A DNA stretch of 64,000 nucleotides from Phycisphaerales bacterium (lineage in GTDB: Bacteria; Planctomycetota; Phycisphaerae; Phycisphaerales; SM1A02), in contig JBFGEG010000004.1 of the NCBI GenBank assembly GCA_041580235.1, positions 1,472 through 65,471 on the forward strand, read 5' to 3'. The notes below the pieces were generated by a model. It was not told the DNA's origin. It did no database searches and was given only the letters and a program-made list of their open reading frames with translations. Of this stretch, positions 8,947-62,577 are shown in pieces (positions within the stretch are counted from its first letter, which is position 1; every line of letters starts with the position of its first letter). Position numbers and translations under genes: made by a program.

Positions 8947-9031
8947 TGCGGCTCCCTTATCGGTCCGCTTCGGCGCCGTGATAACCTCCTTCCGAACAAC
9001 TTACCGAGAACATGGGGGCTATAACGACCGC

Positions 9032-23538: not shown

Positions 23539-23772
23539 CGCAGTTCTCCGGTCCCTGATGATACGCCCCGACGTGCCCTCCGACGGGTGGCGAAGTGGCC
23601 GCGTCGGAAGTCCGGGAAAAGCGCAGGCGGAGACCGGAATTGCAAGCATCTCGACGGTACTACGCCCCGGTCCCGGGGGGCGTTCGCGCTTTCCCCGGCG
23701 GCTTTTTGCCCCGGCCCGCGGGGCGGTGTGACGACCCCCCCAGGCGTGAAAAATCGGATATCTTCCTGACCG

Positions 23773-24912
23773 ATGCCTGTCCCGGTCTCCCAGATGTCGG
23801 CGGTGGCGTGGTACGTGCTGAAGCAGAAGCTCCGGCGGCGCAAGCACTATCCGCTGGTCCTCATGCTGGAGCCGCTCTTTCGCTGCAACCTGGCGTGTGC
23901 AGGCTGCGGCAAGATCCAGTACCCCGCTCACATCCTCAAGCGTCACCTGACGGTGGAGCAGTGCCTGCGGGCGGTGGACGAGTGCGGGGCGCCGATGGTG
24001 TCCGTCCCCGGAGGGGAACCGCTGCTGTACCCCCACATTGCCGAGCTCGTTGAGCGACTCATCGAGCGCCGGAAATACATTTACCTGTGCACCAACGCCC
24101 TGCTGCTCAAGGAGAAGATCGAGCAGGGGGCCTTCAAGCCGTCCAAGTACCTGACCTTCTCGGTGCACATGGACGGGCAGGAAGAGCACCACGACTTCGC
24201 GGTGTGCCGCGAAGGGACCTACGAGAAGGCGGCGGAGGCCATCCGGCTCGCCGTCGAGAAGGGCTTCCGGGTGACCACCAATACCACGCTCTTCGAGGGG
24301 GCCGACCCCAACTCCGTGCGCGCCTTCTTCGACGAGATGATGACGGTGGGCGTCGAAGGTCTCATGGTCAGCCCCGGCTATGCCTACGACAAGGCGCCCG
24401 ACCAGCAGAGCTTTCTGAAGCGTCGGCAGACCAACGAGCTCTTCGAGATGATCCTCTCCAACCGCTCGAAGCGGTGGCGGTTCAACCAGTCGCCGCTGTT
24501 CCTCGAGTTCCTGATGGGGCGCCGCGACTACGAGTGCACGCCCTGGGGCAACCCCACCTACAACATGTTCGGCTGGCAGAAACCGTGCTACCTGCTGCAG
24601 GACGGGTACGCCGACACGTTCCAGGAGCTCCTGGACGACACCGACTGGGACGCCTACGGCCGCGCCTCCGGCAATCCCCAGTGCCAGCAGTGCATGGTCC
24701 ATTGCGGCCACGAGCCGACGGCGGTGGACCACACCTTTTCGAGCTTCGGCGGGCTCTTTGCGACGTTGCGGGCCATCGTCTTCAACGCATATGCAAACCC
24801 GGCCGCGCGAACGAAGCTGGGCAACGAGGCCAAGAAGCCTCACGGCCCGCTGGCGCGGCTGGTGGAGCTGGGCTTCGCCGACGACCTCAAAGCGAAGGCG
24901 GGGGCGGCCTGA
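23773..24912 (+). CDS. hpnH: adenosyl-hopene transferase, radical SAM (hopanoid side-chain biosynthesis)
   Basis: N-terminus YVLKQKL..RK.YPLVLMLEPLFRCNLACAGCGKIQYP with the CxxxCxxC cluster; full-length HpnH-like sequence. Confidence 0.9.
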   Translation: MPVPVSQMSAVAWYVLKQKLRRRKHYPLVLMLEPLFRCNLACAGCGKIQYPAHILKRHLTVEQCLRAVDECGAPMVSVPGGEPLLYPHIAELVERLIERRKYIYLCTNALLLKEKIEQGAFKPSKYLTFSVHMDGQEEHHDFAVCREGTYEKAAEAIRLAVEKGFRVTTNTTLFEGADPNSVRAFFDEMMTVGVEGLMVSPGYAYDKAPDQQSFLKRRQTNELFEMILSNRSKRWRFNQSPLFLEFLMGRRDYECTPWGNPTYNMFGWQKPCYLLQDGYADTFQELLDDTDWDAYGRASGNPQCQQCMVHCGHEPTAVDHTFSSFGGLFATLRAIVFNAYANPAARTKLGNEAKKPHGPLARLVELGFADDLKAKAGAA

Positions 24913-48536: not shown

Positions 48537-49748
48537 TCATCCGCTCGAAGCGGATGATGCGCCGCTGCCCGATGTGTCTTGACTCGTCGATAGCGGCAGC
48601 GTCTCAGTGTTCATCAGACCCTCCGCCTCGATGATCGCAAGGACGCGGCGGGCGATCCGTCGGTCGGCGTCGGCGGTGAAGTGGCCGTCGGGCAGAAAGC
48701 TGTCGAGGTCCGACGCGGGGGCGATCTCGTGGGTCGAGACGAAGGCGAGATCGAGATCCCGCAGGATCGGGCCCAGCAGCGTGTGCAGGTGGTCGGCGAA
48801 GCCCTGCTCGTGAAAGAGCACGACGATGGCAGACCGGCCGTCGGCGCGCACGGTCTCGGCGAACGATCGCACGATCGCGCGGGCAACGGGCCCGACCGTC
48901 GAGTCGGGCCGGTATCCGTCCGTGTCGTGCACCCGCGCCAGTTGACGGCGTATGTGACGCTGGCCCCAGCCACGACGCAGCAGACGCACGAGCGTCGATT
49001 CATCGAGCCGTCCACCCCTGAAGACGAGATCGTCGTAGTAGGCGTCGTGCTCGGCGAGCTGGCGGCGGAACGCCTCCCAGCGGTCGGCGTCGCCCATGGC
49101 ACGGCGGAGCTCGTCGAGCGATTGAACGAGCGGCTCCGTGGCGACGAGCTCGCCGTCGCTGATCCGGTACAGGGGATAGGTGTACGGCGCGGGCGCGTCG
49201 AAGTGGATGAGCATCTGCGTCATGGATTCCAGACCGGCCAGCGCCCAGGCGGAGATACCCAGCATCACGACGTCGGCATCGTGGCGGTCGCGGTCTTTCT
49301 GGTAGCTGTCGTAGGAGTGGCTCAGCGGCGCGTTGGGACCACCGGTGAGTCGAAACGTCAGCGTGGGGTCCAGCGCCTGCATGGCGTAGCACACCCGGAA
49401 CGACGTGGACATGCCGTACGCCGCCACCAGCAGCCCGCCGTCGTGGGCAGCACGGGTCGGCTCGTCGGGCCGGGATCCGTACCACCCGGCCGCCGCCATC
49501 GGGGCCGAGGACCGGTCGGTCGCGCCGACCATTCGGGCCAGCTGCCCCTCCACGGACCGCCCCTGGTCGAAGCGGCGTTGCAAGGGTCCGGGCCGGACGC
49601 CGGCGGGCGGCGACGCGAACAGCCGTCCCACCGCAAAGTCGATGACCGCCAGGCACACCAGCGTCCACAGCACGACCACCACCGCCTGTCGAAACGGCGA
49701 CGGAGGTGACTGGTCAAAACTGGAAGTAGATGAACTCAGTAGGCTCAT
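48537..49748 (-). CDS. membrane-anchored SGNH/DltD/AlgJ-like partner of the MBOAT (putative extracytoplasmic acyltransferase)
   Basis: N-terminal TM (AVVVVLWTLVCLAVIDFAV). Candidate block I Ser (AAYGMSTSF) and block V DGHFTADADRRIARRV (DxxH-like). Immediately downstream of, and overlapping, the MBOAT gene. Start uncertain (49748 or 49787). Confidence 0.6.
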   Translation of the reverse strand: MSLLSSSTSSFDQSPPSPFRQAVVVVLWTLVCLAVIDFAVGRLFASPPAGVRPGPLQRRFDQGRSVEGQLARMVGATDRSSAPMAAAGWYGSRPDEPTRAAHDGGLLVAAYGMSTSFRVCYAMQALDPTLTFRLTGGPNAPLSHSYDSYQKDRDRHDADVVMLGISAWALAGLESMTQMLIHFDAPAPYTYPLYRISDGELVATEPLVQSLDELRRAMGDADRWEAFRRQLAEHDAYYDDLVFRGGRLDESTLVRLLRRGWGQRHIRRQLARVHDTDGYRPDSTVGPVARAIVRSFAETVRADGRSAIVVLFHEQGFADHLHTLLGPILRDLDLAFVSTHEIAPASDLDSFLPDGHFTADADRRIARRVLAIIEAEGLMNTETLPLSTSQDTSGSGASSASSG

Positions 49749-51351
49749 TGCCGGTTCCCATGACGAAGACGAAGATGAGCAATGCATACAGCGCGCCCCT
49801 GCACCACGCCGGCAGCCTGCGATAGGCGAGGGCGTCGCCGGTGGCGTACTCGAGCAGATCGAGACCGAGCAGGACGGGAATCCCGACCACCGCGGAGAGC
49901 GCCGGAAGCTTCATGGACAGGTGCGTGCCGCCGGCCCCGGTGACCAGCGTCGCGGTGAAATCGAAGATCTGAGCGAACGATCCCGCTCGAAACAGCAGAA
50001 AGCTGTACCAGTTGATCGCGAAGAACACCGCGATCCCGGCCGCGACACGCCATCGGCGGCCGGTCCGGTCGGCGTCGGGCCGCGGGGCCCGGTCGCGATA
50101 GACGGCGTGGATGACCAGCAGCAGCCCGTGGAATCCGCCCCAGAGAACGAAGTTCCACGACGCCCCGTGCCAGAGCCCGCCCAGCAGCATCGTGATCATG
50201 AGGGCCGGATAGATGCGACGCCTCGGATCCAGGAACACCAGCGGCATGAACAGGTAGTCCCGCAGCCACGTCGAGAGGCTGATGTGCCACCGCTGCCAGT
50301 ACTCGGCGGGGTTCCGCGCGAAGAACGGCGCGCGGAAGTTCGTCACGAGGTCGATGCCCAGCAGCTTGGACGCGCCCCGGGCGATGTCCGAGTAGCCGGA
50401 AAAGTCGCAGTAGACCTGGAGGCAGAACAGCAGCGTCGCCGCCGCGACGTCCACGGCGCCGACGGTCCCCGTCGAGCTGTAGATCGAGTCGACGCTCGCG
50501 GCGACCCCGTCGGCGATCGCCACCTTCTTGAAGAGCCCCTGCAGGATCAGGAAGCACCCGTGCTGGAAGCGGGCGAGCTCGAAGCGGCGCGGGCTCTGCA
50601 GGCGGGGCAGCAGCTCGCCGGGTCGCTCGATCGGGCCCGCCACAAGCTGCGGGAAGTACGCCACGTACAACGCGAAGTCGAGGAAGCGATCGGTCGGCGG
50701 CAGCTTCCGCCGGTACACGTCGATCGTGTAGCACATCGTCTGAAACGTGTAGAACGAGATGCCCACGGGCAGCACGACGTCGAGGCGGATCAGCCGGGCA
50801 TCGACCCCCATACCCTGCAGCGCCTGCTCCGCGGAGCCGACGAAGAAGTCGAAGTACTTGAAGACGCCGAGGATGGTGAGGTTGACCAAGACGCTCGCCC
50901 ACAGGCCGATCGTGCGGCGGCGGTCATCATCGAGCCGCGACACCAGCCGGTGAGACGCGTTGGCTACAGCGACGAGAGCCAGCGCTCCGCCGAGCGCCCA
51001 GACGCCCAGCGGCTCGAGCAGCGCGGCCCAGTCGACGCCGGACCCGTCGGCCCCGCCGATCCGTACGGCCGACCAGTTGATGGTGACGAAACACAGCGCC
51101 GAGAGCGTGAGCCACGTCGAAGCGCCGAGACGCTGGCGGCCGGTCAGCCCGCCGCGTCCGATGGTCAGCCCGCACCAGTAGTCGACGACGGTTGACAGGG
51201 CGATGAGGAAGAGAAATCGCTCATCCCACGATCCGTAGAAGACATAGCTCGCGACCAGCAGCATGCGGTTCTGCCCGCGGTGAGGCAGCAGCGCATAGAT
51301 GGCGAGCACTGCGGGCAGGAACAGCAGGAACTGGACCGAGTTGAACAGCAC
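49714..51351 (-). CDS. MBOAT-family membrane O-acyltransferase (AlgI/DltB/PatA-like)
   Basis: N-terminus LFNSVQFLLFLP, RWHISLSTWLRDYLFMPL, and catalytic-His region GGLWHGASWNFVLWGGFHG. GTG start at 51351. Confidence 0.92.
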   Translation of the reverse strand: MLFNSVQFLLFLPAVLAIYALLPHRGQNRMLLVASYVFYGSWDERFLFLIALSTVVDYWCGLTIGRGGLTGRQRLGASTWLTLSALCFVTINWSAVRIGGADGSGVDWAALLEPLGVWALGGALALVAVANASHRLVSRLDDDRRRTIGLWASVLVNLTILGVFKYFDFFVGSAEQALQGMGVDARLIRLDVVLPVGISFYTFQTMCYTIDVYRRKLPPTDRFLDFALYVAYFPQLVAGPIERPGELLPRLQSPRRFELARFQHGCFLILQGLFKKVAIADGVAASVDSIYSSTGTVGAVDVAAATLLFCLQVYCDFSGYSDIARGASKLLGIDLVTNFRAPFFARNPAEYWQRWHISLSTWLRDYLFMPLVFLDPRRRIYPALMITMLLGGLWHGASWNFVLWGGFHGLLLVIHAVYRDRAPRPDADRTGRRWRVAAGIAVFFAINWYSFLLFRAGSFAQIFDFTATLVTGAGGTHLSMKLPALSAVVGIPVLLGLDLLEYATGDALAYRRLPAWCRGALYALLIFVFVMGTGNEPTEFIYFQF

Positions 51352-51434
51352 GGCCCGTCTTCATCGGCCGGTTACCGGACGTGCCGAAGTCGATCTCGCG
51401 GTTCGAGGGGCTTTTTTGCGCGCTTGAAGCAGCT

Positions 51435-52382
51435 CTACCAGATGTCGTTGACCCGCTTCTGAACAAGCAACGCCATGGAGCGGGGCAGGAACCGCGCATC
51501 GGGCAGCGTTCGCTCGGGGCTGCCGGAGTACGTTTCCAGCACGCGGAGGCCGTGGTCCTCCGCCAGCACGACGAGCTCCGACTCGCGGCGGAACTCGGCG
51601 ATGTGGTCAGTGTGCGCTGCGGTCAGGGCGCCGGTGATGAACGCGGTGCCGTGAGGGCGCAGCAGCCCGCTGATTGCCGCGAAGAGGGCGTCGGGGCGCT
51701 CCAGGTGCTCCACGAGAAAGCAGCAGATGCATGCATCGGCGGGGTCGGACGGTTTCGGCAGCCCGAGAGCGTCCTGACGCTCGAAGTCGGCACGATCGCG
51801 GACGCCCGCCGCCTCGGCAATCGATTCTGCGATGGCGATCGAGCCGGGGCTGATGTCGTAGCCTCGGACACGGGCCCCGGAGAGGGCCGTCAGCGCCCAC
51901 ACGCCCCAGCTTCCGTGGCCCGGCGCAAGCTCGACGATTCGCACCGAGTTGTCCAGCCTCGCCACGAACCGATCGCGGAACATCATCGCGATCTCCAGGT
52001 GATGGGGCCAGAGAAAATTGGTCAGGTACGCCCCCCACAGGTACTCGGTCATGCTGTCCGCACCGTACACCGCCTGGTAGACGTCGTCGTAGGTGCGCTG
52101 CCCGTAACTTCCTCGGCGCTCGTACCGCGCCTGCTCCAGGCCGACGTCCGTGCAGAATCGGACGTATGCATCCACCATCTCGCCAATCGAGAGCCGGCCC
52201 GGCGCGGCCATCGCCCATTCCAGGTGCATCTCGACGATCTCATCGAACCGTGCGGGGTTCACGGCCCGCGTCTCCTGGAGACCTGGCAGGGACCGTGGAT
52301 GGCGAGCTTCGACGTAGGCCGTCAGCTCGTCGAGCAATGGGCGACCGACGCGTGTTCGAGTGGGGGGGGCAGTGGTGCTCAC
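51435..52382 (-). CDS. class I SAM-dependent methyltransferase
   Basis: Motif I IVELAPGHGSWG, motif II-like VRGYDISP, and post-I acidic residues. GTG start shares a GTGA overlap with the ACP stop. Confidence 0.8.
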   Translation of the reverse strand: MSTTAPPTRTRVGRPLLDELTAYVEARHPRSLPGLQETRAVNPARFDEIVEMHLEWAMAAPGRLSIGEMVDAYVRFCTDVGLEQARYERRGSYGQRTYDDVYQAVYGADSMTEYLWGAYLTNFLWPHHLEIAMMFRDRFVARLDNSVRIVELAPGHGSWGVWALTALSGARVRGYDISPGSIAIAESIAEAAGVRDRADFERQDALGLPKPSDPADACICCFLVEHLERPDALFAAISGLLRPHGTAFITGALTAAHTDHIAEFRRESELVVLAEDHGLRVLETYSGSPERTLPDARFLPRSMALLVQKRVNDIW

Positions 52383-52654
52383 GCCTGTCCCGCGGGCTGC
52401 CCGGCCGGTCGGTCGGCCAGCTTCTCGTGAATCAGTCCACGCAACTCGCCGACGTTCGTGAGCCTGATGACCTCTTCACTACGGAACCTGACGCCGAGCT
52501 CCTGCTCGAGATGGATCATCAGGCTGACGTGCTTGAGCGAGTCCCAGCCGTCAACGTCCGCGGAGGTCATGTCGTCACGCAGCTCGAGCCCGGGCCGGCG
52601 GAACAGCGTCCGGAAGACGTCGGTCACGATCTCGTCGATTGTGTTCTTGTCCAT
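52379..52654 (-). CDS. acyl carrier protein
   Basis: 91 aa with a phosphopantetheine attachment motif DGWDSLKHVSL in a four-helix-length protein. Start ATG 52654. Confidence 0.85.
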   Translation of the reverse strand: MDKNTIDEIVTDVFRTLFRRPGLELRDDMTSADVDGWDSLKHVSLMIHLEQELGVRFRSEEVIRLTNVGELRGLIHEKLADRPAGQPAGQA

Positions 52655-54593
52655 CGTGTTGATCCCAGGAGTCGGTTCTGAGCTCGACCAGGTGCGTCGG
52701 GGGTGTATCGGCAGTCGGGTCGCATTCCCACCACTCGTGATCTCCGGACGAATCGGCGAGGACGCGACGGAAGCCGAGGCGGGCGTAGAGATCGGCGACG
52801 ATGCCGTTCTTGACCGTGGCGATGAACTCGCCCCGCAGGGGACGGGTGCCGGCACGTTGCATCATCCATGCGGCGATCGCCTGCTCGACGGTCCGGTTGA
52901 GGACGCGGCAGCTCATGACCCAGCTGTCGATACGCAGTTGACCGCCGTTCGGGACGAGAACGACGGCGGCGATCACGCCCTGTGATCCGAAGACGTCCTC
53001 GTAGGAAAAGACGCCGATCACGGCGCCCTGCTTGCGCAGCGTGTCGAGATCGTGTTCCGTGTGCCGCCGCGTGGTGAGGTTGAACTGGTTCGACTTCTGC
53101 AGCATCTGGGCGACCCGTCGGCGGTTGGGCTCACCGTACGGCTGCACGTCGACGCGGATTCGGATCGCCGCCAGGTAGTCGTCGTAGTCGTCAAAGCTCG
53201 TGCGAAGCTCGGCGGCGGCTCGCCGGGCCGCCAGGTGGCGATGGCGGCTCAAGTCCGTGTCCGTGATTCGGACCGTGTGGAAGTAGCGACCGGCGGCGAG
53301 GGCGGCCAGCGTGTCCGCCGCGGCCGGCCCCGCCCGTATGACGTCCAGGTGCGGGTGCCGCCCCAGCGCTTCGGCGAGCTCGAAGAGGTTGTCGTCGACG
53401 AACAGCATGAACTCCGGTCCAAAGCCGAGGTCCGAACTGATGTTGGCGATCGAGCTGCTCTTGGGATCCCAGCCGATCTGCATGGAAGAGAAGTCGTCGC
53501 TCCCCAGCGCCAGGTTCGGGTTGCGCTCGAAGATCGATCTCACCTCAGGCGAGTTCTTGCTCGCGACCGCCAGCGCGACGCCCAGCGACGTCAGGTTGCG
53601 GCAGTACAGCTGGAGCCGGTGATAGCCCCTGCCGTCGGCGTCGTCAGGTCCGGAGACGATGCCGTGCGGCCCGGCATCGCCGACGGTGCCGCCCCACAAC
53701 GTGTTGTCGAGATCCAGCACGAGGGCCCGGTGGGTCTTGCCGCACAGGGCGGCAACGGAGAACGCGACCTCGCGGGCGAGGGTGACGAGACACGCCGCGT
53801 CATAGGGAATCCCCGCCCGTTGCTCGTTGGCGGCGCTGTACGCGCGCTGTCCGCCCGCTGCGTGGACGGCGTGTGCCCGGTCGATCACTGTGACCCGGGG
53901 CGACTGCATGGCGTGCAAGTGTGCGTTGAGCCGCCCGAGGGCGGCAGCGTAGCCGATGCGGTCCTCCCCGTGCGCGTACCCGCCCGGGACCGCGACGGCA
54001 CCGGGGGCGAAGTTCGTGATGAGAACCTCCGCATGCTCGACGATCGGACCAACGAGGCGGTCGAGCATGTCGGCCGCCTGCTCGATCCGCTCGGACGCGA
54101 CGAGGCCGCCGGGCCCGAGCTGACGGTGCAGCCACGTCTCCCCCAGCGCGATCAGCACGAAGTCGGCGGGCTGCCGGTGCAGCGCAGAGGTGGGGTCGAG
54201 GGCATGAGCCTCGACCGAGTCGAACGCCATGACCTGCACGTCGACATGGACGCCGAGACCGGCGCTGAGTGCCGTCACGAGCGGTGCGAGGTTGTCAATG
54301 GTGTGGTCGGAGAGCACGGCGATCCGCCGGGTGACCGGATTGGGCTTCAACGGCGGCCGGCCGAGATCGTCCCAGCGGTTCAGGAGCTTCTGATACCACA
54401 GCATCGTGCGTCCCGGCTGCAGAAGCGCCAGCCTCAGCAGCGTCTGCGCGGCCGAGGTCGCGCCGCAGCCCAAGAGCTCGTCAAGGGCGCCGGCCAGGGC
54501 CCGCGAGTCGTCTCCAAGTGCGAGAGGCAGACCGGTGCCGAGTGCGGCGGCCGCGGGCTTGTGACTCGAACTGGACATGGATGGGGTCGTCAT
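52575..54593 (-). CDS. FkbH-like HAD-IIIC phosphatase/loader with C-terminal GNAT-like domain
   Basis: HAD motif I LVLDLDNTLWGG, motif II VASKN, and FVDDN acid motif, matching the FkbH/HAD-IIIC pattern. The C-terminal ~170 aa is acyltransferase-like. The 3' end overlaps the ACP gene by 80 nt. Start uncertain (54593, 54578 or 54689). Confidence 0.85.
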   Translation of the reverse strand: MTTPSMSSSSHKPAAAALGTGLPLALGDDSRALAGALDELLGCGATSAAQTLLRLALLQPGRTMLWYQKLLNRWDDLGRPPLKPNPVTRRIAVLSDHTIDNLAPLVTALSAGLGVHVDVQVMAFDSVEAHALDPTSALHRQPADFVLIALGETWLHRQLGPGGLVASERIEQAADMLDRLVGPIVEHAEVLITNFAPGAVAVPGGYAHGEDRIGYAAALGRLNAHLHAMQSPRVTVIDRAHAVHAAGGQRAYSAANEQRAGIPYDAACLVTLAREVAFSVAALCGKTHRALVLDLDNTLWGGTVGDAGPHGIVSGPDDADGRGYHRLQLYCRNLTSLGVALAVASKNSPEVRSIFERNPNLALGSDDFSSMQIGWDPKSSSIANISSDLGFGPEFMLFVDDNLFELAEALGRHPHLDVIRAGPAAADTLAALAAGRYFHTVRITDTDLSRHRHLAARRAAAELRTSFDDYDDYLAAIRIRVDVQPYGEPNRRRVAQMLQKSNQFNLTTRRHTEHDLDTLRKQGAVIGVFSYEDVFGSQGVIAAVVLVPNGGQLRIDSWVMSCRVLNRTVEQAIAAWMMQRAGTRPLRGEFIATVKNGIVADLYARLGFRRVLADSSGDHEWWECDPTADTPPTHLVELRTDSWDQHDGQEHNRRDRDRRLPDAVPPARARAA

Positions 54594-55035
54594 GGCGATG
54601 GGCACCGCCGGGCCCCCGAGAGACCGGCTTATTGTCTGTCGGATGCGATCGGCCTTCGCTGCAGGCCAAATCGCACCCCGTGCAGGCACCGGACCGTGGG
54701 TTTCGGCCAGCTGATCGTCTGGCCCGTGGCGGGCGCGGGTACCGGTAGACCCTGAGAAGGCAGAAACTTACATCGAATCTTCGGGCCCCCGTTGGTGCTG
54801 TCAGCCCGCTCAGGGCAATTCCGAGGCGAGGCGGCGAACCAGTATCTGGAACTCGTTGAGTCCTGCCCCGACCTCACCGGCGACGGCGTGGTCGGGATCG
54901 CCGCGTTGTTCCGGTCGGCACGCTCCGGATCCTGAACGTCCCGGCCGGATTCCCCAGCTTGACAGCGTCTGCGGACGCCGCCCGTGACACTTCCGCGGAG
55001 GAGCCGAGACGCCTGGACTCGCGCCCGGCACGATC

Positions 55036-56559
55036 TTGTGGCGGCGTGCACCGGAATATACTCGCCCCGTGGTTGGACACCGGCTGAGAACGAGCGCGTG
55101 GGCGTGGCTGGCACTGGTGCCGGCGGCGGGTCTCGCCGGCTGCGATCGACCCGACGAGACGCGGCCGCCCAACGTCGTGCTCGTCTCGGCCGACACGCTG
55201 CGGGCCGACGCCCTCAACTGCTACGGGTACCGGGACCACGTGGTGAGCCCCCACCTTGACGCGCTGGCCCGCGACGGCATTCTCTTCGAGAGCTTCATCG
55301 CCGCTTCGCCGTGGACGACGCCGTCGCACATGAGCCTCGTCACGTCGCTGCACCCGACGTCCCACGGCATCGTGCAGCCGTTCTCGACCCTCATGCTCCG
55401 CATGCGGATGGGCAAGGGATACGACCGGCTTGCCGACGACCGGATCACGCTCGCCGAGGTGCTTCGCGACAACGGCTACGAGACGGCTGCGTTCACTGGC
55501 GGCATCACCCTGGATCCGGCCATCGGTTTCGACCAGGGCTTCGACCGGTACGAGACGTCCATGTACAAACTCGATGAGCGGAACATGGGCGCCATGTTCG
55601 AGTGGATCGTGGCCAACGAGGCAAGGCCGTTCTTTCTCTTCTTCCACACGTTCGAGGTGCACGCGCCGTATCTGCACGGCGATTTTCTGCCCGACGAGCA
55701 TGCCGCCCTGCGAACGGCCCTGGCCGCTCGGATCGGCGACCTGACGTCGGCGTCCGCGACAAGCGAGCAGCACAAGGGGCACAACGACATGATGCGCCGG
55801 CTGCTCGTCGATCGGGACGCCTGGGATCCCCGGATCACGCGGGCGATGTACGGCGGCGGCGTCCGATCCTTCGACGGCTGGCTGGGGCGTCTCGTGGAGA
55901 CGCTCCGCGAGCGGGGGCTCTACGACGACACGCTGATCGTCTTCGTCAGCGACCACGGCGATGAGTTTGCGGACCACGACCCGGCGCACTTCTACGACAT
56001 GCACGGGCACACGCTGTACGAGGAGCTCGTTCGCGTGCCGCTCATCATCAAGCTGCCGGGGGGGGAGCACGCCGGCACGCGAGTACGCCCGGTCGCCCGC
56101 GGGGTGGATGTCATGCCCACGATCGTGGACCTGCTCGACCTCGCGCCGCCGGGCCCGGTCATGCAGGGTCTCTCGCTGGAGCCGCTGTGGGACGGCGGCA
56201 CCAACCCGCGGCCGCGTGTGGCGTTCTGCGAGGCCTCAGCATTACCAAACGAGCTCAAGTGCGTCCGGACCGCCCGTTACAAGTACATCGTCGATGTCCC
56301 CGCGTCGAGCGTCAGCGAGAACGGCCGTGCCTGGCTGCCGGAGCAGATCGAGACGCGTCTGCTGTTTGATCTGCAGTCGGACCCCTTTGAGCGCACCAAC
56401 CTGCTGGCCGGCGAACCGTCGGCGACCGTGCAGGCACTTGTCGCAGCGCTCGACACGCGTCTGCGGGGATTCCTCAATGAAGACGCCGCCGAGACCGAGG
56501 AGGTTTTCCTCGACGAGGAGACCATCAGGAAGCTGCGCGCCCTGGGATATCTCGAGTAA
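55036..56559 (+). CDS. sulfatase-like (alkaline-phosphatase superfamily) lipoprotein with Thr in place of the formylglycine Cys/Ser
   Basis: NVVLVSADTLRAD metal site and C-terminal DHGDEF. The nucleophile motif reads W-T-T-P-S-H where sulfatases have C/S-x-P-x-R. Lipobox LAGC. Start is TTG 55036 or GTG 55069. Confidence 0.85.
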   Translation: MWRRAPEYTRPVVGHRLRTSAWAWLALVPAAGLAGCDRPDETRPPNVVLVSADTLRADALNCYGYRDHVVSPHLDALARDGILFESFIAASPWTTPSHMSLVTSLHPTSHGIVQPFSTLMLRMRMGKGYDRLADDRITLAEVLRDNGYETAAFTGGITLDPAIGFDQGFDRYETSMYKLDERNMGAMFEWIVANEARPFFLFFHTFEVHAPYLHGDFLPDEHAALRTALAARIGDLTSASATSEQHKGHNDMMRRLLVDRDAWDPRITRAMYGGGVRSFDGWLGRLVETLRERGLYDDTLIVFVSDHGDEFADHDPAHFYDMHGHTLYEELVRVPLIIKLPGGEHAGTRVRPVARGVDVMPTIVDLLDLAPPGPVMQGLSLEPLWDGGTNPRPRVAFCEASALPNELKCVRTARYKYIVDVPASSVSENGRAWLPEQIETRLLFDLQSDPFERTNLLAGEPSATVQALVAALDTRLRGFLNEDAAETEEVFLDEETIRKLRALGYLE

Positions 56560-56824: not shown

Positions 56825-56881
56825 ACTTTGCTCAGATACCGTGCTCCTGCCCGTTGACCGACATCGGTATTCTTGGTCACA

Positions 56882-58084
56882 ATGGGGCCGATGCGGTGGC
56901 GGCGGACCATTCAGGGAATCGGGATCCCGCTCCTGGCGGGGTGCGCGGCGGTCCCTGCGGAAGCCGGACCCGGTCATCTCCGCATCGTCACCTACAACGT
57001 CGCCAGGCTCAACAGCGAGGCGTGCACCCCGGGCGCGCTGGAGTCCGTTTTTACAGCCCTGAACGAGGATGAGTCTCCGCCCGTTGCGGACGCGCCTCAT
57101 GTCTATGTCTTCCAGGAGGTACGGTCCGCCGACGTCGTCCCCCTCGGGGAGATGCTCAACGCGGTCGCGCCTTCCGGTGTGACCTATGTTCTTGGCACTT
57201 ACACCAACAACAACGAGGACGTCGCCGCCGGCGCCCAGGCGCTGTTTTACCGCCCGGACACGCTGGCCGAGGTTACGAGCGAGCATGCGGACTTCGTGAC
57301 CGGGGGCGGCCGCCAGGCCGACCGCTGGAAGCTGCAGCTGACCTGCCATAGCGGGGTCAGTGTCTACATCTACGGCAACCACCTCATGCACGCATCGGGT
57401 GCCGCCAGCGAACAGCTGCGTCTGGAGGGAGCCATGGTGATCCGCGAGGATGCGGACACGCTGCCGGAGGGCACCGCCGTCATCTATGCCGGTGACATGA
57501 ACCTCTATCACAGCGAGGAGCCCGCGTACGCGCACTTCCTCTCGCCCGGTCCCGGCCAGGCCTTCGATCCGCTCGGCACCGAGCCCTGGAACTGCACCGA
57601 GGATCCCTCGGCCGCGGTCAAGCACACCCAGTCGCCCCGCTGCGTTCAAAGTTGCGCGCTCACCGGCGGCTGCATGAACGACCGGTTTGATTTTCAGCTC
57701 ATGACGGATGAGCTGCTGGACGGCGTCGGGATCGACTATCTGCCGGGCAGCTACCGCGCCCTAGGCAACGATGGCCAGCACTGCGAGATCGCCATCAACG
57801 AGGGCGACAACTTTTACTACGGCGACGTCACCCGCTCCAACGCGCTCGCCGACGCGCTCCACGACGCCTCGGACCATCTTCCGGTCGTGGTCGACTATGA
57901 ATACACGACCATTAGCGGCGACATCGATGGCAACGGCACGGTGGGGCTCGCCGACCTTCTCGCGGTGGTCGGGAACTGGGGTAACTGTCCCCAGCCCTGC
58001 ACCGCCGCCTGCGCCGGTGATGTGGACTGCGACTGCATCGTCGGCATCAGCGACTTCCTGCTCGTTCTGGGACTCTGGGGTTAG
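56882..58084 (+). CDS. secreted endonuclease/exonuclease/phosphatase (EEP) family protein with dockerin-like tail
   Basis: EEP motifs LRIVTYNV, VFQEV, GDMN, SDHLPVVVDY. Lipobox/signal IPLLAGC. Tail GDIDGNGTVGLADLLAVVGNWGNCP...GDVDCDCIVGISDFLLVLGLWG. Start 56882 or 56891. Confidence 0.8.
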   Translation: MGPMRWRRTIQGIGIPLLAGCAAVPAEAGPGHLRIVTYNVARLNSEACTPGALESVFTALNEDESPPVADAPHVYVFQEVRSADVVPLGEMLNAVAPSGVTYVLGTYTNNNEDVAAGAQALFYRPDTLAEVTSEHADFVTGGGRQADRWKLQLTCHSGVSVYIYGNHLMHASGAASEQLRLEGAMVIREDADTLPEGTAVIYAGDMNLYHSEEPAYAHFLSPGPGQAFDPLGTEPWNCTEDPSAAVKHTQSPRCVQSCALTGGCMNDRFDFQLMTDELLDGVGIDYLPGSYRALGNDGQHCEIAINEGDNFYYGDVTRSNALADALHDASDHLPVVVDYEYTTISGDIDGNGTVGLADLLAVVGNWGNCPQPCTAACAGDVDCDCIVGISDFLLVLGLWG

Positions 58085-58201: not shown

Positions 58202-59680
58202 ATGGATTCCACGCCCTTGTCCGCCGCCCGTCACCTGATCCATGGGAGCGCACGCGTCCTTCTCGCCGAGGCCCTGGTTCTGCCGACCGGTCTCCTGACC
58301 GCGGTGTATCTCACGCGGCGGCTGGGGCCCGCCGACTACGGACTGTTCACGCTGGCGTCGGTCGTCGCGGTATGGCTGGAGTGGGGAATCGCGTCCTTCT
58401 TCTCGCGGGCGACGATCCAGCTCGTGGGCGAAGCGGACGACTGGAAACCGATCGGGACACTGGTGGTGCGCGGCCATCTCGTCGTGAGCGGCAGCGCGGC
58501 TGTTGCGCTGTGGCTGGCGGCCTCTACCGTGGCGGGGGCGCTGGGCGAGCCGGAGCTCACAGGCTACCTGCGGCTCTTCGCCGTCGGTCTTCCGCTGTTC
58601 AGCCTGGTCCAGGGGCATCGCCACATCCTGGTGGGGACCGGCGCCTTTCAAGCGCGGGCACTCACCAGCGCGAGTCGATGGATCGCGCGGCTGCTGCTGA
58701 TCATTCTCCTCGTGGAGCTGGGTCTCTCCGTCAGCGGAGCCATCCTCGGCAGCATCGGTGCATCGTTGGTTGAGCTCGTCGTCGCGCGTTGCCATGTCCG
58801 ACCGTCGCCCTTCGGACATGCAGGGCTTCCCTGGCGGCGGCTCATCGGCTACGCCGTGCCGCTGTCCCTGTTCGCGCTGAGCCTGCGGATCTTCGAGAAG
58901 CTGGACCTCATCATGTTCAAGATCCTCGGCGCCACGGCGCCCGAGGCGGGTGTCTACGGGGCTGCCCAGAGCCTGTCACTCATCCCCGTGCTGTTCGGTC
59001 TCACCTTCGCGTCACTGCTGCTCTCGACGCTCACACGAACACTGCGAGCGGGAAGCCTTCAGGAGGCTCGCGATCTCGGACGCGACTCGATGCGGCTGGT
59101 GCTCGTGCTCCTGCCCGGGGCGGCGCTGGTGGCGGGAGCTTCCGCCGAGATCGTCGACCTGCTGTTCGGGGCCCCCTTCGCCGGCGCGTCCGGCCCGCTG
59201 GCGCCGTTGATCTTGGCCGGCCTGGCCATTGTGATGATCGGTGTGACCACCGCGATCCTGACGGCGGCGGGCAAGCCCGCCTGGACGTTCGGCCTGGTCG
59301 GACCGCTGGTCCCTCTGGCCCTGCTGGGGCACCTGCTGCTGATTCCGAGTCTTGGAATGATCGGAGCCGCGCTGGTGACCACCGCCCTCGCCCTGCTGGC
59401 GGCAATGGTCGCGGTGGCTGCCGTCCACCGGATCTGGCGGATCATGCCTCCGCCCGCCACGCTGGCACGCAGCGTCCTCGTGAGTGGTGTGACCTTCGGA
59501 CTGGCCGTGGCGTGGCCCACGCCGGGGTTATGGCTCCTTTTGAAGTTCGCGGTGATCGCACTCGTGATCGCCTGCGCCTTTGTGCTTCTGCGGGAATTCA
59601 GCGTTCGCGAGATCCTGGATGGCGCGCTGGGCGGCGTACGGGCCACGCAACGCGGTGACCGGACCGATCCCCGTGAATGA
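58202..59680 (+). CDS. polysaccharide biosynthesis protein / Wzx-like MOP-family flippase
   Basis: About 14 predicted TM helices. N-terminal ...GSARVLLAEALVLPTGLLTAVYLTRRLGPADYGLF pattern typical of oligosaccharide flippases. Confidence 0.8.
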   Translation: MDSTPLSAARHLIHGSARVLLAEALVLPTGLLTAVYLTRRLGPADYGLFTLASVVAVWLEWGIASFFSRATIQLVGEADDWKPIGTLVVRGHLVVSGSAAVALWLAASTVAGALGEPELTGYLRLFAVGLPLFSLVQGHRHILVGTGAFQARALTSASRWIARLLLIILLVELGLSVSGAILGSIGASLVELVVARCHVRPSPFGHAGLPWRRLIGYAVPLSLFALSLRIFEKLDLIMFKILGATAPEAGVYGAAQSLSLIPVLFGLTFASLLLSTLTRTLRAGSLQEARDLGRDSMRLVLVLLPGAALVAGASAEIVDLLFGAPFAGASGPLAPLILAGLAIVMIGVTTAILTAAGKPAWTFGLVGPLVPLALLGHLLLIPSLGMIGAALVTTALALLAAMVAVAAVHRIWRIMPPPATLARSVLVSGVTFGLAVAWPTPGLWLLLKFAVIALVIACAFVLLREFSVREILDGALGGVRATQRGDRTDPRE

Positions 59681-60932
59681 CGTCCTGCTGCGCGTGTTCC
59701 GGGCGCTCGAGGAGCAAGGCATCAGCTACTGCCTGATGCGGGACTACGACCAGCTCGATCAGGTCGGCAACGGCCGCGACGTGGACCTGCTCGTTGAAGA
59801 GAGCCGGTTCGCCGAGACGTACCGCATCCTGGACGGGCTTGGGTTTCTCCGCCTCCCGTATCGAGGGCATGCGCCCCATCACTTCTTCGTGGCCTACGAC
59901 GAGGACTCGGACCTCTGGCTGGAGCTCGATGTCGTGACCGAGGTCGCGTGCGGCCGGCCGGTTTACGCACTGCGCACCGGGCTCGCTTCACACTGCCTTG
60001 GCGGACGGAGACGCCGGGGGCCGACCTACGTCGCGTCGCCGGCCGACGAGCTGGTGATGCTTCTGCTGCACTGCGTCGTCGACAAACGCGAGGTGACCGC
60101 GGTCCGGCGCGAGCGTCTGGTCGCCCTGGTTGGCGAGGTTACTGACGAGCAGGAAATCTCCGAGCGGCTGGCAAGCTGCTCGACGTTGAGCTGGCCGCAA
60201 CTTACCGCGTGCATCAGGGCCGGCGAGTGGGACCGGCTGCTTGCCGAGCGGCCTGCCATCGAGCGTCGCCTGGCCGCACGGGATCAGTTCGGCACGCTCG
60301 GGCGGAAGATCCGGGACCGTGTCCTTCGCCACCTGGACCGGGCGGCAGGCCTGCTGCGACCCCGTGCCCTGAGTGTGGCCCTGCTGGCACCCGACGGAGC
60401 CGGTAAGACGACGCTCGCGCAAGGACTTCGGCGGACGTACTACGGGCCCGTCCGGTCGATGTACATGGGTCCCTACCGGGCCGGGGGCGGGGGGCCTCCC
60501 GGCCGCCGGCGTTCACCTTTCGGCGTGCCGTGGCGGTTTGCCCGGCAGTGGTGCCGGTTCCTCGCGGCGCGATATCACCGGACACGGGGGCGCACGGTGA
60601 TCTTCGACCGTTACGGCTACGACGCCCTGGCTCCGCCTTCGCCGCCCCGCACCCGCCTGGAGAAGACGCACGCGTGGCTGCTGAGCCGCGCCTGCCCTGC
60701 GCCCGATCTCGTCCTCGTGCTCGACGCTCCGGGCGAGGTGCTCCACGCCCGCAAGAGCGAAAGCAGCACATCCGTCCTGGAGCGACAGCGGCAGTGCTAT
60801 CTCGATCTTCGCGATCGACTTCCCCGAGTGATCGTCGTCGACGCCACGCCGGACGCCGAACAGGTCCGGCGACACGTCGTATCCTTGATCTGGAGGCAGT
60901 ACGTGGCGGCGTGCAGGAAGAGGCGGCGATGA
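59673..60932 (+). CDS. fusion protein: uncharacterised nucleotidyltransferase-like N-domain + P-loop (dTMP-kinase-like) kinase C-domain
   Basis: N-domain VFRALEEQGISYCLMRDYD....GRDVDLLV resembles the NTP_transf_5-type family. Walker A LLAPDGAGKTTLAQGL, followed by VIFDRY and LVLVLDAP (Walker B/lid-like). GTG 59673 overlaps the flippase 3' end by 8 nt. Confidence 0.65.
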   Translation: MNDVLLRVFRALEEQGISYCLMRDYDQLDQVGNGRDVDLLVEESRFAETYRILDGLGFLRLPYRGHAPHHFFVAYDEDSDLWLELDVVTEVACGRPVYALRTGLASHCLGGRRRRGPTYVASPADELVMLLLHCVVDKREVTAVRRERLVALVGEVTDEQEISERLASCSTLSWPQLTACIRAGEWDRLLAERPAIERRLAARDQFGTLGRKIRDRVLRHLDRAAGLLRPRALSVALLAPDGAGKTTLAQGLRRTYYGPVRSMYMGPYRAGGGGPPGRRRSPFGVPWRFARQWCRFLAARYHRTRGRTVIFDRYGYDALAPPSPPRTRLEKTHAWLLSRACPAPDLVLVLDAPGEVLHARKSESSTSVLERQRQCYLDLRDRLPRVIVVDATPDAEQVRRHVVSLIWRQYVAACRKRRR

Positions 60933-61552
60933 CCGGGCGAAACGGACGGAGACCCTTCGACGCCGCGCTGCGATCGTCACGGCGACTCGACTGGCGTTTT
61001 CTTCTGCCGAATCCCATGTTGGGGCGGGTGGGTTATCTCGGTCCGCGCGGGGGGAGGCTGCGGGAATCACTGCAGGAGTTCAGCGAGGAGTGCATGGATC
61101 TCGAATGCGACGGCCGGGAAGGCCCCCCCGCGCCGAGGAACCTCCTCGACGTGGTGGTCGTGACGGACCCGCGACTGAAAACGCTGCAGTCCGCGGTGGC
61201 GTCGCTGAAGACCGGCGGCTGGCTCTACGCAGAGGTGGATCGCGGCTGGGCACGCAGCGGGCCGCTGCGTCATCTGCCGCGCCCGTCGGTCCGGCCACGC
61301 GTCACCTCAATGCTCCGACGACTCGGCATGGAGGACATCGCCGTCTCCTGGCACTGGCCTGACTTCGACGCCTCGAATGCGATCCTGGGGGTGCGCGACC
61401 GCGCGGCGGTCTTGTACGCCCTTCGCTTTCGACCGGACACCCCCGGCCTGCGCTGGGCGTCGATCGCCGCCCATGGCATTCTCCGCTCGCCGCTGCTTGG
61501 GCTGGTCGTTCCGTGCGTCAGCGTCGTGGCCCGCCGCGGAGGTGCCGCGTGA
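60929..61552 (+). CDS. hypothetical protein (possibly degenerate methyltransferase fold)
   Basis: ATGA overlap with the upstream stop. RVGYLGPRGG....LDVVVVTDP...LKTGGWLYAEV is reminiscent of class I MTase strands, but without a clean SAM motif. Confidence 0.5.
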   Translation: MTGRNGRRPFDAALRSSRRLDWRFLLPNPMLGRVGYLGPRGGRLRESLQEFSEECMDLECDGREGPPAPRNLLDVVVVTDPRLKTLQSAVASLKTGGWLYAEVDRGWARSGPLRHLPRPSVRPRVTSMLRRLGMEDIAVSWHWPDFDASNAILGVRDRAAVLYALRFRPDTPGLRWASIAAHGILRSPLLGLVVPCVSVVARRGGAA

Positions 61553-62577
61553 ACGCCGTCCTCACGTTCCTGGAGACGAACCGACAACGCTTGCACCTCG
61601 ACGACCACGGCGTCCCCCAACCGGCCTCCTGGGTGATCCGGACGGGGCAGTCGCGGACATCGAGTCACGTGGTGGTACTGATCCTGGACCCGCGGCACGG
61701 CCACCCGCGTCTGGTGGCCAAGGTGGGGCGTCTTCCGGGCGTGACCGGCCGACTCGCCACGGAGGCGTCGAACCTGGAGGCGGTGCACGCACTGCGCCCG
61801 GGCGGATTCGACTCCATACCCCGACTCGTCTCCGTCGAGACGTTTCACGGTCATTGCCTCCTGCTGCTGACCGCGCTGGTCGGAGCGCCGCTCGAACCAG
61901 CGCTCCGCGGCGACCTCGCGGGCGTCTGCTCAACGGTCACGGAGTGGCTCATCGAGCTGCATCGCCACAGCCGGTCGAGTCACGAGGGGTGGTACGAGCG
62001 GCTGGTTGAGCAGCCGTCGGATCACTTCGCACAGATCTTTCCCCTGTCACCGGACGAGGCATCGCTCGTGGATCGCACACGCCAGCTCGCCGAGAGCGTG
62101 CGGCGGGATTCCCTCCCGCTCGTGTTCGAGCAAGGTGACATGAGCCGTCCCAACATCCTGCTCCTGGAGAAAGGCGGGGCGGGCGTCGTCGATTGGGAGC
62201 TGGCGCAACCAACGGGCCTGCCCGCATGCGACCTCTTCTTCTTTCTCGCCAACGCGTCCTTCGCCCGGGCCGGCTCCCACAGGACGGGCGATTACGTGAC
62301 GGCATTCCGGGCGGCGTACTTCGGTCGAGGGGCGTGGGCGCGGCCCTATGTCAGGCGATACGCCGAAGCGATCGGCCTTGACGAAGCAATGCTCACACCG
62401 CTGTTCGTCCTGTGCTGGGCTCGGTATACGGACAACCTGCTGCGGCGTCTTGACGAGCCGAGCGCCGCCCGTGAGAGGCCGAGACCGGAGACGGTGCACT
62501 GGCTGCGTGGATATCGCTTGTACACGCTGTGGCAGTACACGATCGCGCACATCGATGAGCTCGACTGGGAAGACTGA
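61549..62577 (+). CDS. aminoglycoside/choline-kinase-type phosphotransferase (APH family)
   Basis: Catalytic loop QGDMSRPNILL and Mg-binding VVDWE. GTGA overlap with the upstream stop. Confidence 0.75.
   Translation: MNAVLTFLETNRQRLHLDDHGVPQPASWVIRTGQSRTSSHVVVLILDPRHGHPRLVAKVGRLPGVTGRLATEASNLEAVHALRPGGFDSIPRLVSVETFHGHCLLLLTALVGAPLEPALRGDLAGVCSTVTEWLIELHRHSRSSHEGWYERLVEQPSDHFAQIFPLSPDEASLVDRTRQLAESVRRDSLPLVFEQGDMSRPNILLLEKGGAGVVDWELAQPTGLPACDLFFFLANASFARAGSHRTGDYVTAFRAAYFGRGAWARPYVRRYAEAIGLDEAMLTPLFVLCWARYTDNLLRRLDEPSAARERPRPETVHWLRGYRLYTLWQYTIAHIDELDWED

Follow-up and report, generated by a model that had tools for sequence, protein, structure and literature searches.

The window, by which we mean the whole 64,000-nucleotide stretch of DNA that was analysed, raises the question of what an FkbH-like loading enzyme and a carrier protein are doing beside an MBOAT and an SGNH-like protein. 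Five genes occupy positions 48537-54593 in the order FkbH-like, ACP, methyltransferase, MBOAT and SGNH-like partner, all on one strand as the first-pass annotation had claimed; it is the minus strand, and no terminator-like site lies on it inside the cassette. The reading that we favor, with a probability of about 0.55, is that the cassette encodes a Dlt-like MBOAT-SGNH acylation pathway that depends on a carrier protein and loads it by a different enzyme. In the best version of this reading, an extracytoplasmic glycan would be esterified with a glycerate-derived, probably O-methylated unit, where we infer both the acyl group and the acceptor.

The loading enzyme (672 aa; 52575..54593, minus strand) combines FkbH_N at the N-terminus with a HAD-IIIC phosphatase and, at the C-terminus, a GNAT fold; on identical contigs, gene callers chose a start four codons earlier, at 54605. 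It scores above the cutoff of the FkbH model TIGR01686 (230.1 bits; cutoff 146.65), reaches 54.5 bits with the HAD-IIIC model TIGR01681 and matches PDB 3slr at 2e-27, while its AF2 model (pLDDT 91.2) also matches 3slr in Foldseek, with a TM-score normalised to the target (TMt) of 0.87. The GNAT-like C-terminal domain seen by the first-pass annotation has no Pfam match and was confirmed by its predicted fold, which GNAT acetyltransferases match at TMt 0.6-0.72. The motifs DLDNT, VASKN and FVDDN, which that annotation had picked out as FkbH/HAD-IIIC hallmarks, are present and fall on family-invariant columns. Catalytic residues are observed directly: D294/D296/T298, S345, K378 and D400/D401 of the HAD domain and the S561-C562-R563 motif of the GNAT-fold domain are all invariant in 45 FkbH sequences, and codons were verified for the window protein. 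Both sets of residues, including the candidate acyl-transfer Cys, are kept on an alignment whose invariant columns also take in sequences labelled methoxymalonyl-ACP FkbH or D-glyceryl-ACP synthase.

The next gene encodes a stand-alone ACP of 91 aa (52379..52654, minus strand), which passes the PP-binding cutoff (23.4 bits; cutoff 20.8) and matches a putative ACP, PDB 2lml, at 6e-12. The DSL site noted earlier is the phosphopantetheine site, with Ser39 (52538-52540) in W-D-S-L-x-H, and the protein is 49-68% identical to the FkbH-adjacent ACPs of loci L082 and L087-L089. The reported 80-nt overlap of the FkbH-like gene with the 5′ end of the ACP gene proved real; the ACP start agrees with homologue N-termini, and the overlap falls on the non-conserved, low-pLDDT FkbH tail (residues 644-672). 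A GTGA overlap joins the ACP stop to a class I SAM methyltransferase (315 aa; 51435..52382, minus strand), and both the overlap and the enzyme class were verified. The enzyme has Methyltransf_25/11/12/23 matches, belongs to the Methyltransf_25/11 class and not to the FkbG (cation-dependent O-methyltransferase) type, and has MitM and a glucose O-methyltransferase as its closest solved structures. Its homologues adjoin FkbH in L087 (43% identity), L090, L092, L117, L145, L088 and L082, and it is proposed to be the tailoring enzyme of the carrier-bound unit.

The fourth gene encodes a long-type MBOAT (545 aa; 49714..51351, minus strand). The conserved His region ascribed to it stands, as the protein matches PF03062 (84.7 bits, cutoff 27; 9.4e-24) and DltB 6bug (6e-30, with WHG aligned), where His395 (50167-50169) in LWHG aligns with the FWHG of 6bug; across 112 MBOATs, conservation of this catalytic histidine is 95% or more. 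Because the score against the DltB equivalog TIGR04091 is 164.4 bits, below the cutoff of 375, the window MBOAT is a relative of DltB and not an orthologue. Its C-terminus carries the putative acyl-shuttle hexapeptide FIYFQF (49717..49734, minus strand; Tyr542 at 49726-49728), a directly observed instance of FxYxxF. When 86 MBOAT ORFs (from L001-L088, including fragments and four short FkbH-linked MBOATs) were checked with a regular expression, 75 ended in F.Y..[FWYLM] and four more in YIYSQF. For PatA and DltX, experiments have established FxYxxF as an acyl-Tyr shuttle (PMC12148441), and its fused form in the window MBOAT, a finding that goes beyond the first-pass annotation, strengthens the analogy with Dlt.

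The last protein is a membrane-anchored SGNH-like partner (403 aa; 48537..49748, minus strand), whose gene overlaps the MBOAT stop by 35 nt from the start at 49748, or by 74 nt from an alternative start at 49787 that gives 416 aa. HMM searches, which had been suggested for all five proteins, assigned four of them and left the partner with no Pfam or NCBIfam match (Lipase_GDSL, SGNH, DltD and AlgX models included); a profile search against PDB sequences also returned no match, and hhalign of the partner family against other partner classes was not significant. Its assignment comes from the fold, which is predicted like the other folds of the cassette proteins. The AF2 model (pLDDT 92.7) has a flavodoxin-like SGNH fold that Foldseek matches with probability 1.0 to TesA (TMt 0.64-0.66) and GDSL lipases and with probability 0.98 to PatB 7tjb; Axe2 also matched, and DltD 3bma appeared at rank 46 with probability 0.57. 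The resemblance to SGNH proteins is at the fold level only, with modest E-values of 2e-4 to 2e-2. Across 53 homologues, S114 of the AYGMSTS block and H356 never vary and D354 is kept in 90% or more, the latter two both in DGHF. When the block II Gly and block III Asn of the oxyanion hole were looked for, G137 and P138 proved conserved after strand 2 and a clear block III Asn was not found. The putative triad (codons 49407-49409 for Ser114, 48687-48689 for Asp354 and 48681-48683 for His356) fits the SGNH order in the secondary structure of the model, with Ser following strand 1 and Asp/His preceding the last helix. The earlier description of an MBOAT-overlapping, membrane-anchored protein with SGNH-like blocks is upheld by this predicted fold and the invariant Ser and Asp-x-His, and the SGNH/DltD-like fold that it called for is found in a model that matches SGNH hydrolases. 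The partner family comprises 965 cluster representatives, and among 80 partner loci, nearly every one that includes upstream DNA has an MBOAT immediately upstream.

In the mechanism that we propose, the FkbH-like enzyme would take a phosphorylated three-carbon acid, most likely 1,3-bisphosphoglycerate, which its HAD domain would dephosphorylate and Cys562 would carry as an acyl thioester. The acyl would move from Cys562 to the phosphopantetheine arm of the ACP, creating glyceryl-S-ACP, and the adjacent methyltransferase would probably O-methylate this tethered unit. The MBOAT would then take the acyl from the ACP at the cytoplasmic face and use His395 to transfer it to Tyr542 of its own C-terminal motif at the outer face. 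Finally, the membrane-anchored partner would receive the acyl on Ser114 and esterify an extracytoplasmic acceptor, most probably a polysaccharide. Here, we infer which way the acyl flows, what the acyl unit is, what is methylated and which acceptor is used.

Comparative genomics supports this wiring, which the first-pass annotation had put forward. FkbH/ACP/MBOAT/SGNH-like synteny is observed directly and recurs across diverse metagenomes, with the same ACP type in 63 of 80 metagenomic FkbH loci, an MBOAT in 22 of the 38 that have at least 4 kb downstream, and a recognisable membrane-anchored SGNH-like gene in 18 of 29 MBOAT-bearing loci; the neighbourhood conservation that was to be checked is strong. 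Three FkbH loci hold an AcpS-type PPTase family ORF, whose representative, just upstream of FkbH in L126, matches PF01648. The FkbH homologues of highest identity (46-57%) belong to cassettes with an ACP, a short MBOAT, a microprotein of 49-51 aa ending in FIY(Q/A)GF and an SGNH-like gene, along with a methyltransferase and sometimes a MaoC/SDR fusion, an architecture that is that of Dlt with FkbH replacing DltA. DltX-like microproteins are found in sister cassettes L082, L087, L088, L109 and L145, a second finding that goes beyond the first-pass annotation and strengthens the Dlt analogy. The five-gene cassette itself is intact in L086 in an unrelated genomic context, where the flippase and GT2 genes that neighbour the window cassette are both missing, a point that weighs against the favored reading. 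In L082, the gene directly before the orthologous MBOAT encodes an ACP paralogue, and other carrier modules stand beside window-type pairs elsewhere: an FkbH-ACP-TE fusion (L073), an ACP (L069) and KS-AT-KR-DH-ACP-TE (L051). The FkbH-ACP-MBOAT cassettes come from many taxonomically unassigned metagenomes, and relatives of their components from MAGs labelled Planctomycetota, Cyanobacteria, Proteobacteria and Hydrogenedentota.

Taken by itself, the MBOAT-partner pair looks like an acyl-CoA-type O-acetyltransferase, and it could be an ordinary acetyl-CoA-dependent pair of the PatA/PatB or AlgI/AlgJ type, with FkbH, ACP and methyltransferase serving a separate cytoplasmic step, such as attaching the acyl to a sugar nucleotide or a lipid through an enzyme whose gene lies elsewhere. 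We consider this unlikely, though a reading to be taken seriously: the window MBOAT nests in a clade of about 70 orthologous MBOAT-partner pairs from other phyla with no ACP or FkbH within 8-10 kb, it is of the long type with a fused FxYxxF, like the acetyl-CoA-using PatA, and the methyltransferase and MBOAT genes are 83 nt apart, which counts against the carrier-fed reading. Because most orthologous pairs elsewhere have no nearby carrier gene, the MBOAT-ACP link in the window lineage would be drawn from operon structure, cassette portability and the loss of a sequence motif, PLGGN[R/K]. However, the cassette holds no other acyltransferase to use the acyl-ACP, it travels as a five-gene unit, and long MBOATs with a fused motif lie directly behind FkbH-ACP in many unrelated loci. 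The sequence motif would also argue against an acetyl-CoA donor, since this near-invariant feature of the clade has been lost in the window lineage alone. The window MBOAT reads FMPLVFL in its place and all seven window-clade MBOATs lack it, whereas glycine occupies the tested position in 67 of the 70 clade relatives that have no carrier gene close by; 33 of 34 FkbH-linked MBOATs lack the motif too, as does DltB. PLGGN[R/K] is not a perfect predictor of donor type, because L051 (GSNR) and L069 (GGNR) keep a GGNR-like motif beside carrier domains.

If the wiring is carrier-fed, the unit might still not derive from glycerate, in that this FkbH-like branch would load some other small acid, phosphorylated or activated, and the methyltransferase would act on the final polymer. 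The identity of only about 30% to PKS-type FkbH proteins and the widely differing accessory enzymes of related cassettes (MaoC, SDR, glyoxalase-like, methyltransferase) are consistent with such a unit, which we judge less probable still, given that no family member departs from the HAD phosphatase residues or the Cys motif, those with methoxymalonyl-ACP FkbH and D-glyceryl-ACP synthase annotations included, and that the characterised FkbH enzymes known to us all start from 1,3-bisphosphoglycerate. A further point against this reading is that the methyltransferase of L145 sits between FkbH and ACP. A highly improbable reading is that FkbH, ACP and methyltransferase supply a polyketide or non-ribosomal synthase, whose genes would lie elsewhere, with a building block such as methoxymalonyl-ACP, a methylglycerate starter or the glyceryl unit of a tetronate, even though this is the only experimentally characterised FkbH-type role (PMC7489565, PMC13122637). 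In agreement with the first-pass annotation, Pfam scans of 34 window ORFs, which span most of the 64 kb apart from the ORFs at 60.5-62.6 kb (61513-62577 among them), found no KS, AT, C or A domains or FkbI/FkbK-type dehydrogenases. Nor are the related loci PKS/NRPS clusters, as 847 ORFs from 83 related FkbH loci hold no KS/AT signature motifs, and the methyltransferase class again speaks against this role.

The Dlt-like pathway that we prefer can be set against known systems. As in Dlt, a stand-alone carrier protein is encoded with the MBOAT (the window ACP lies two genes upstream of it), the MBOAT core can be aligned with that of DltB so that the conserved histidines coincide, an FxYxxF motif is present and PLGGN[R/K] missing, and the partner, of SGNH type and roughly 400 aa, is anchored in the membrane and has its Ser near the domain N-terminus and Asp/His near the C-terminus; the sister cassettes share DltX-like microproteins as well. 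In contrast to Dlt, the loader is an FkbH/HAD-IIIC enzyme with no DltA, and no AMP-binding protein that could be a DltA-type adenylation enzyme was found in the cassette or its flanks; the expected acyl is therefore a hydroxy-acid and not D-alanine. The window cassette also adds a methyltransferase, has the shuttle motif fused to its MBOAT where Dlt has it on a microprotein, and encodes an MBOAT below the DltB equivalog cutoff and a partner with no DltD Pfam match. Its host appears to be a planctomycete and, to our knowledge, would lack teichoic acids.

PatA/PatB carries out O-acetylation of peptidoglycan, AlgI/AlgJ/AlgX of alginate and WssH/WssI of cellulose. These systems share with the window a long-type MBOAT with a fused C-terminal FxYxxF, an SGNH-type partner encoded immediately downstream and the polysaccharide-related genomic context of the wider family. 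They use an acetyl-CoA donor and no carrier protein (PMC12148441), whereas the window operon holds an ACP, a loader and a tailoring enzyme, its clade is without the PLGGN[R/K] that its carrier-less relatives keep, and its partner forms a sequence family of its own that no Pfam model covers. With the FkbH/OzmB-type glyceryl-ACP synthases of methoxymalonyl-ACP and tetronate pathways, the loader shares TIGR01686, the HAD residues and the invariant Cys motif, and it likewise comes with a dedicated carrier. The FkbH-OMT loading module BslA of suomilide and banyaside also resembles the window in having a methyltransferase and no FkbI/FkbK dehydrogenases, and the route put forward for suomilide combines FkbH with an O-methyltransferase that acts on carrier-bound glycerate (PMC13122637). 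Unlike the FkbH polyketide systems, the window has no KS, AT, FabH-like or NRPS partner, its methyltransferase is not FkbG-like, and no methoxymalonyl-ACP set (FkbI, FkbK, FkbG-type) was found beside FkbH and ACP at the window locus. With a membrane MBOAT-SGNH pair as the apparent consumer, the pathway would yield a surface ester and not a secondary metabolite.

A search of the literature found no pathway in which an FkbH-loaded carrier feeds an MBOAT-SGNH pair, and current models place a carrier protein and DltX in the Dlt pathway only, with other bacterial MBOAT-SGNH systems using acyl-CoA (PMC12148441). We tentatively suggest, at somewhat less than even odds, that FkbH-fed MBOAT-SGNH cassettes make up a class of envelope acylation, widespread but uncharacterised, in which a C3 unit from glycolysis (1,3-bisphosphoglycerate) is tailored on a carrier and esterified onto extracytoplasmic glycans. 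The proposed tailoring is methylation in the window and dehydration and reduction to lactyl elsewhere. The window lineage would then have an acyl-CoA-type long MBOAT rewired to a carrier donor, a switch marked by the loss of PLGGN[R/K], a motif that would predict donor type and may provide a testable sequence rule across bacterial MBOATs. If this is true, carrier-protein-fed surface acylation would reach far beyond Firmicutes, and its different loading chemistry would predict glyceryl, O-methylglyceryl or lactyl esters on environmental polysaccharides. FkbH enzymes would gain a role outside secondary metabolism, and the partner family would gain a function.

The five minus-strand genes at 48537-54593 are read here as an MBOAT-SGNH acylation system whose donor is a carrier protein loaded by an FkbH enzyme, a reading that we hold to be slightly better than even (a probability of roughly 0.55). 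All five ORFs show the codon-position G+C bias of real genes in a window of ~67% G+C, and the placement of the cassette in the first-pass annotation is confirmed. The FkbH-like gene (52575-54593; 672 aa), which matches TIGR01686 at 230 bits against a cutoff of 146.65 as well as HAD-IIIC TIGR01681, is followed by the ACP (52379-52654; 91 aa; PP-binding, 23.4 bits against a cutoff of 20.8), a class I SAM methyltransferase (51435-52382; 315 aa), the MBOAT (49714-51351; 545 aa; PF03062, 9.4e-24) and its partner (48537-49748; 403 aa). HMM searches thus assigned the first four proteins to the families originally named, while the partner was left without a match in either Pfam or NCBIfam. The junctions are also as first described, with an 80-nt overlap of the FkbH and ACP genes, a GTGA overlap between ACP and methyltransferase, and an MBOAT/partner overlap of 35 nt; the methyltransferase and MBOAT genes are separated by 83 nt. 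A promoter and terminator scan, informative only for the absence of minus-strand terminators, placed no such site within the cassette.

The remainder of the window is ordinary chromosome, and close relatives of both the FkbH-like protein and the partner are found in MAGs bearing the label Planctomycetes or Planctomycetota. Adjoining the cassette and divergently transcribed are genes for a sulfatase, a Wzx-type flippase and a GT2 glycosyltransferase. The sulfatase gene (55036-56559, plus strand) lies across a 440-nt intergenic region from the FkbH gene, and a sulfotransferase (8053-9000, minus strand) is also encoded in the window. A 403-aa protein with a signal-like N-terminus and no Pfam match (56873-58084, plus strand) carries two C-terminal repeats, DIDGNGTVGLADLL... 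and DVDCDCIVGISDFL..., resembling dockerin or EF-hand-type repeats. The end of the Wzx-like flippase gene is overlapped by ~100 nt by a 450-aa ORF (59580-60932, plus strand) whose sole recognizable feature is a weak, C-terminal P-loop region of thymidylate-kinase-like type, and a 354-aa ORF without assignment follows (61513-62577). Farther away, a radical SAM protein with a DUF3463 domain (23770-24912, plus strand) has an architecture that we take to be that of the hopanoid side-chain enzyme HpnH.

In the FkbH-like protein, the HAD residues Asp294, Asp296, Thr298, Ser345, Lys378, Asp400 and Asp401, and a Ser-Cys-Arg motif containing the putative acyl-transfer cysteine (Cys562), are invariant across 45 family members, a set that includes proteins annotated as methoxymalonyl-ACP FkbH and D-glyceryl-ACP synthase. 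In the AF2 model (pLDDT 91.2), domains 1 and 2 match PDB 3slr with a target-normalised TM-score (TMt) of 0.87, and the C-terminal domain overlays GNAT acetyltransferases at TMt 0.6-0.72. A relaxed Pfam scan of the C-terminal domain gave no match, and it is this fold that confirms the GNAT-like identity suggested in the first-pass annotation. The last 29 residues (52575-52661, minus strand) are non-conserved, are modelled with low confidence, and owe their existence only to a stop codon placed 80 nt within the ACP gene; homologues such as that in the related locus L082 end ~27 residues earlier. The ACP is a member of a distinct family in which the pantetheine serine sits within an invariant W-[D/T]-S-x-x-H.

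At the other end of the cassette, the partner has 53 full-length homologues, all unnamed, among which Tyr111, Gly112, Ser114 and His356 are invariant and Asp354 nearly so. Its family comprises 965 cluster representatives at 50% identity. The model (pLDDT 92.7) consists of an N-terminal transmembrane helix and a five-stranded alpha/beta domain, for which Foldseek retrieved SGNH enzymes (TesA, GDSL lipases, PatB and Axe2, with DltD at rank 46). The serine is predicted to open the helix that follows strand 1 and the Asp-x-His to precede the last helix, which is the SGNH layout, and this fold, with the conserved Ser, His and Asp, upholds the SGNH-like nature first proposed. The family profile gave only chance matches against PDB sequences, and hhalign comparisons with three other SGNH-like partner classes (from loci L103, L087 and L082) aligned the block V regions with scores that were not significant.

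The MBOAT aligns with DltB, conserves the WHG histidine, and ends in FIYFQF. Anderson et al. (JBC 2025, PMC12148441) show that PatA acetylates itself on the tyrosine of a C-terminal hexapeptide, FXYXXF, which hands the acyl group on to PatB, an SGNH protein; as they describe for the Dlt pathway, DltB carries D-alanine from DltC, the carrier protein, to an FXYXXF on the DltX microprotein, and DltD then transfers it. Because it carries an FxYxxF-type motif, the window MBOAT is equipped for an acyl-Tyr relay. By regular expression across related loci L001-L088, F.Y..[FWYLM] ends 75 of 86 listed MBOAT ORFs, a set that includes fragments and four short FkbH-linked MBOATs, and YIYSQF ends four more.

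Whether a carrier protein feeds this relay is where the evidence divides. The partner family was found in 80 loci (one genome per species), spanning Cyanobacteria, Hydrogenedentota, Planctomycetota, Methylococcales, Bradyrhizobium, Syntrophus and others; where sequence upstream of the partner gene is present, the adjacent gene is nearly always an MBOAT. The usual neighbors are glycosyltransferase, Wzy, epimerase and deacetylase genes; FkbH, ACP and methyltransferase genes are missing near the pairs in these loci, so the conserved unit is a two-gene MBOAT-partner module, and this is evidence against an ACP-MBOAT wiring. Against L001-L080, a phmmer search with the window ACP returned a single marginal match, in L069. 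In favor of such a wiring, carrier modules follow pairs of the window type in three loci: an FkbH-ACP-thioesterase fusion of 976 aa (L073 2309-5239, plus strand), a single-module KS-AT-KR-DH-ACP-TE synthase beside a sugar transferase (L051 11691-18074, plus strand), and an 81-aa PP-binding protein together with a P450 (L069 11346-11591, plus strand). Separately, the pair in a Hydrogenedentota locus is immediately preceded by an acyl-ACP thioesterase gene (PF01643; L020 7700-8578, plus strand), one of four such cases in the neighbor census, the others probably being L030 7431-8288, L034 7691-8569 and one more locus. The arrangement hints that this branch uses fatty-acyl donors.

Loci found through FkbH argue for the carrier-fed system. 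The closest FkbH relatives (46-57% identity; L082, L087 and L088) each head a cassette of ACP, short MBOAT without the motif, microprotein of 49-51 aa ending FIYQGF or FIYAGF, and membrane-anchored SGNH-like protein, which is the Dlt architecture with FkbH in the place of DltA. L089 begins with FkbH, ACP and MBOAT before its contig ends, and some of these four cassettes also include methyltransferase and MaoC/SDR genes. Among 80 more distant metagenomic FkbH loci, an ACP of the window type is present in 63 and an MBOAT in 22 of the 38 having at least 4 kb downstream, mostly of the long type with fused motif; long motif-bearing MBOATs therefore routinely adjoin FkbH and ACP. A recognizable membrane-anchored SGNH-like gene occurs in 18 of 29 MBOAT-bearing FkbH loci, and recurrent accessory genes encode glyoxalase-like, SDR, MaoC, methyltransferase and AcpS-type PPTase proteins. 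Closer to the window, all five genes are intact in L086 (partner identity 81%) in a completely different genomic context, and in L082 the gene immediately preceding the orthologous MBOAT-partner pair encodes an ACP paralogue that shares 68% identity with that of the window, with the FkbH cassette running divergently alongside. Just after the WRWH motif, relatives in the clade that have no nearby carrier gene read Y[I/V]PLGGN[R/K], with glycine at the position of residue 372 of the window MBOAT in 67 of 70; the window clade reads FMPLVFL (7/7), GGN[R/K] is missing from 33 of 34 FkbH-linked MBOATs, and DltB, also lacking it, reads FMRLVIV. We infer from these motifs that loss of GGN[R/K] in the window clade may mark a donor switch towards a carrier protein. 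The NJ tree of the MBOATs gives no ancestral states, since its FkbH-linked members entered the sample by way of FkbH.

These cassettes, locus counts and motifs support the Dlt-like reading of the first-pass annotation, which had proposed to test for a conserved FkbH-ACP-MBOAT neighborhood. The cassette would work like Dlt, but it is not a member of that family, since it has no DltA and its MBOAT falls under the DltB equivalog cutoff. A polyketide extender-unit role, already thought unlikely, is rejected for the absence of KS, AT or dehydrogenase genes among 34 ORFs scanned across most of the window; nor do related clusters sit in PKS/NRPS loci, since neither KS nor AT signature motifs occur among 847 ORFs of related FkbH loci.

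To our knowledge, all characterised FkbH enzymes convert 1,3-bisphosphoglycerate to glyceryl-S-ACP via a cysteine thioester. MaoC dehydratase and SDR reductase genes replace or accompany the methyltransferase in many FkbH-ACP-MBOAT cassettes, as fusions (L082 and L088, e.g., L088 11421-12962) or separately (L136, L150 and L166), and could convert glyceryl-ACP to lactyl-ACP, by analogy with the bryostatin loading module. The FkbH role in forming glyceryl-S-ACP is described (PMC7489565; PMC13122637), and in suomilide an FkbH domain and an O-methyltransferase acting on carrier-bound glycerate, without FkbI/FkbK dehydrogenases, are the proposed route to 2-O-methylglycerate (PMC13122637). The window methyltransferase probably acts on the tethered unit, since its homologues adjoin FkbH in at least eight other loci and lie between FkbH and ACP in L145. 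By analogy with FkbH chemistry and the suomilide route, and given this placement, the acyl group would most likely be glyceryl or O-methylglyceryl, with lower confidence than for the wiring, and the MBOAT-partner neighborhoods point to a polysaccharide as acceptor.

Literature joining FkbH or HAD-IIIC with MBOAT, DltB, AlgI, polysaccharide or carrier protein yielded no description of an FkbH-ACP-MBOAT-SGNH wiring, and an FkbH-loaded carrier feeding an MBOAT-SGNH pair is undescribed within what was searched. Non-Dlt MBOAT-SGNH pathways are stated to have neither a carrier protein nor a microprotein of the DltX kind (PMC12148441). Five FkbH-ACP cassettes encode, beside short MBOATs without the fused C-terminal motif, small membrane proteins of 42-51 aa ending FIYQGF, FIYAGF or VVYQGF (L082 2464-2613, minus strand; L087 11457-11612, L088 9188-9340, L109 3213-3341 and L145 8079-8210, plus strand). 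These look like DltX analogues outside the Dlt pathway, in contrast to the absence stated in 2025.
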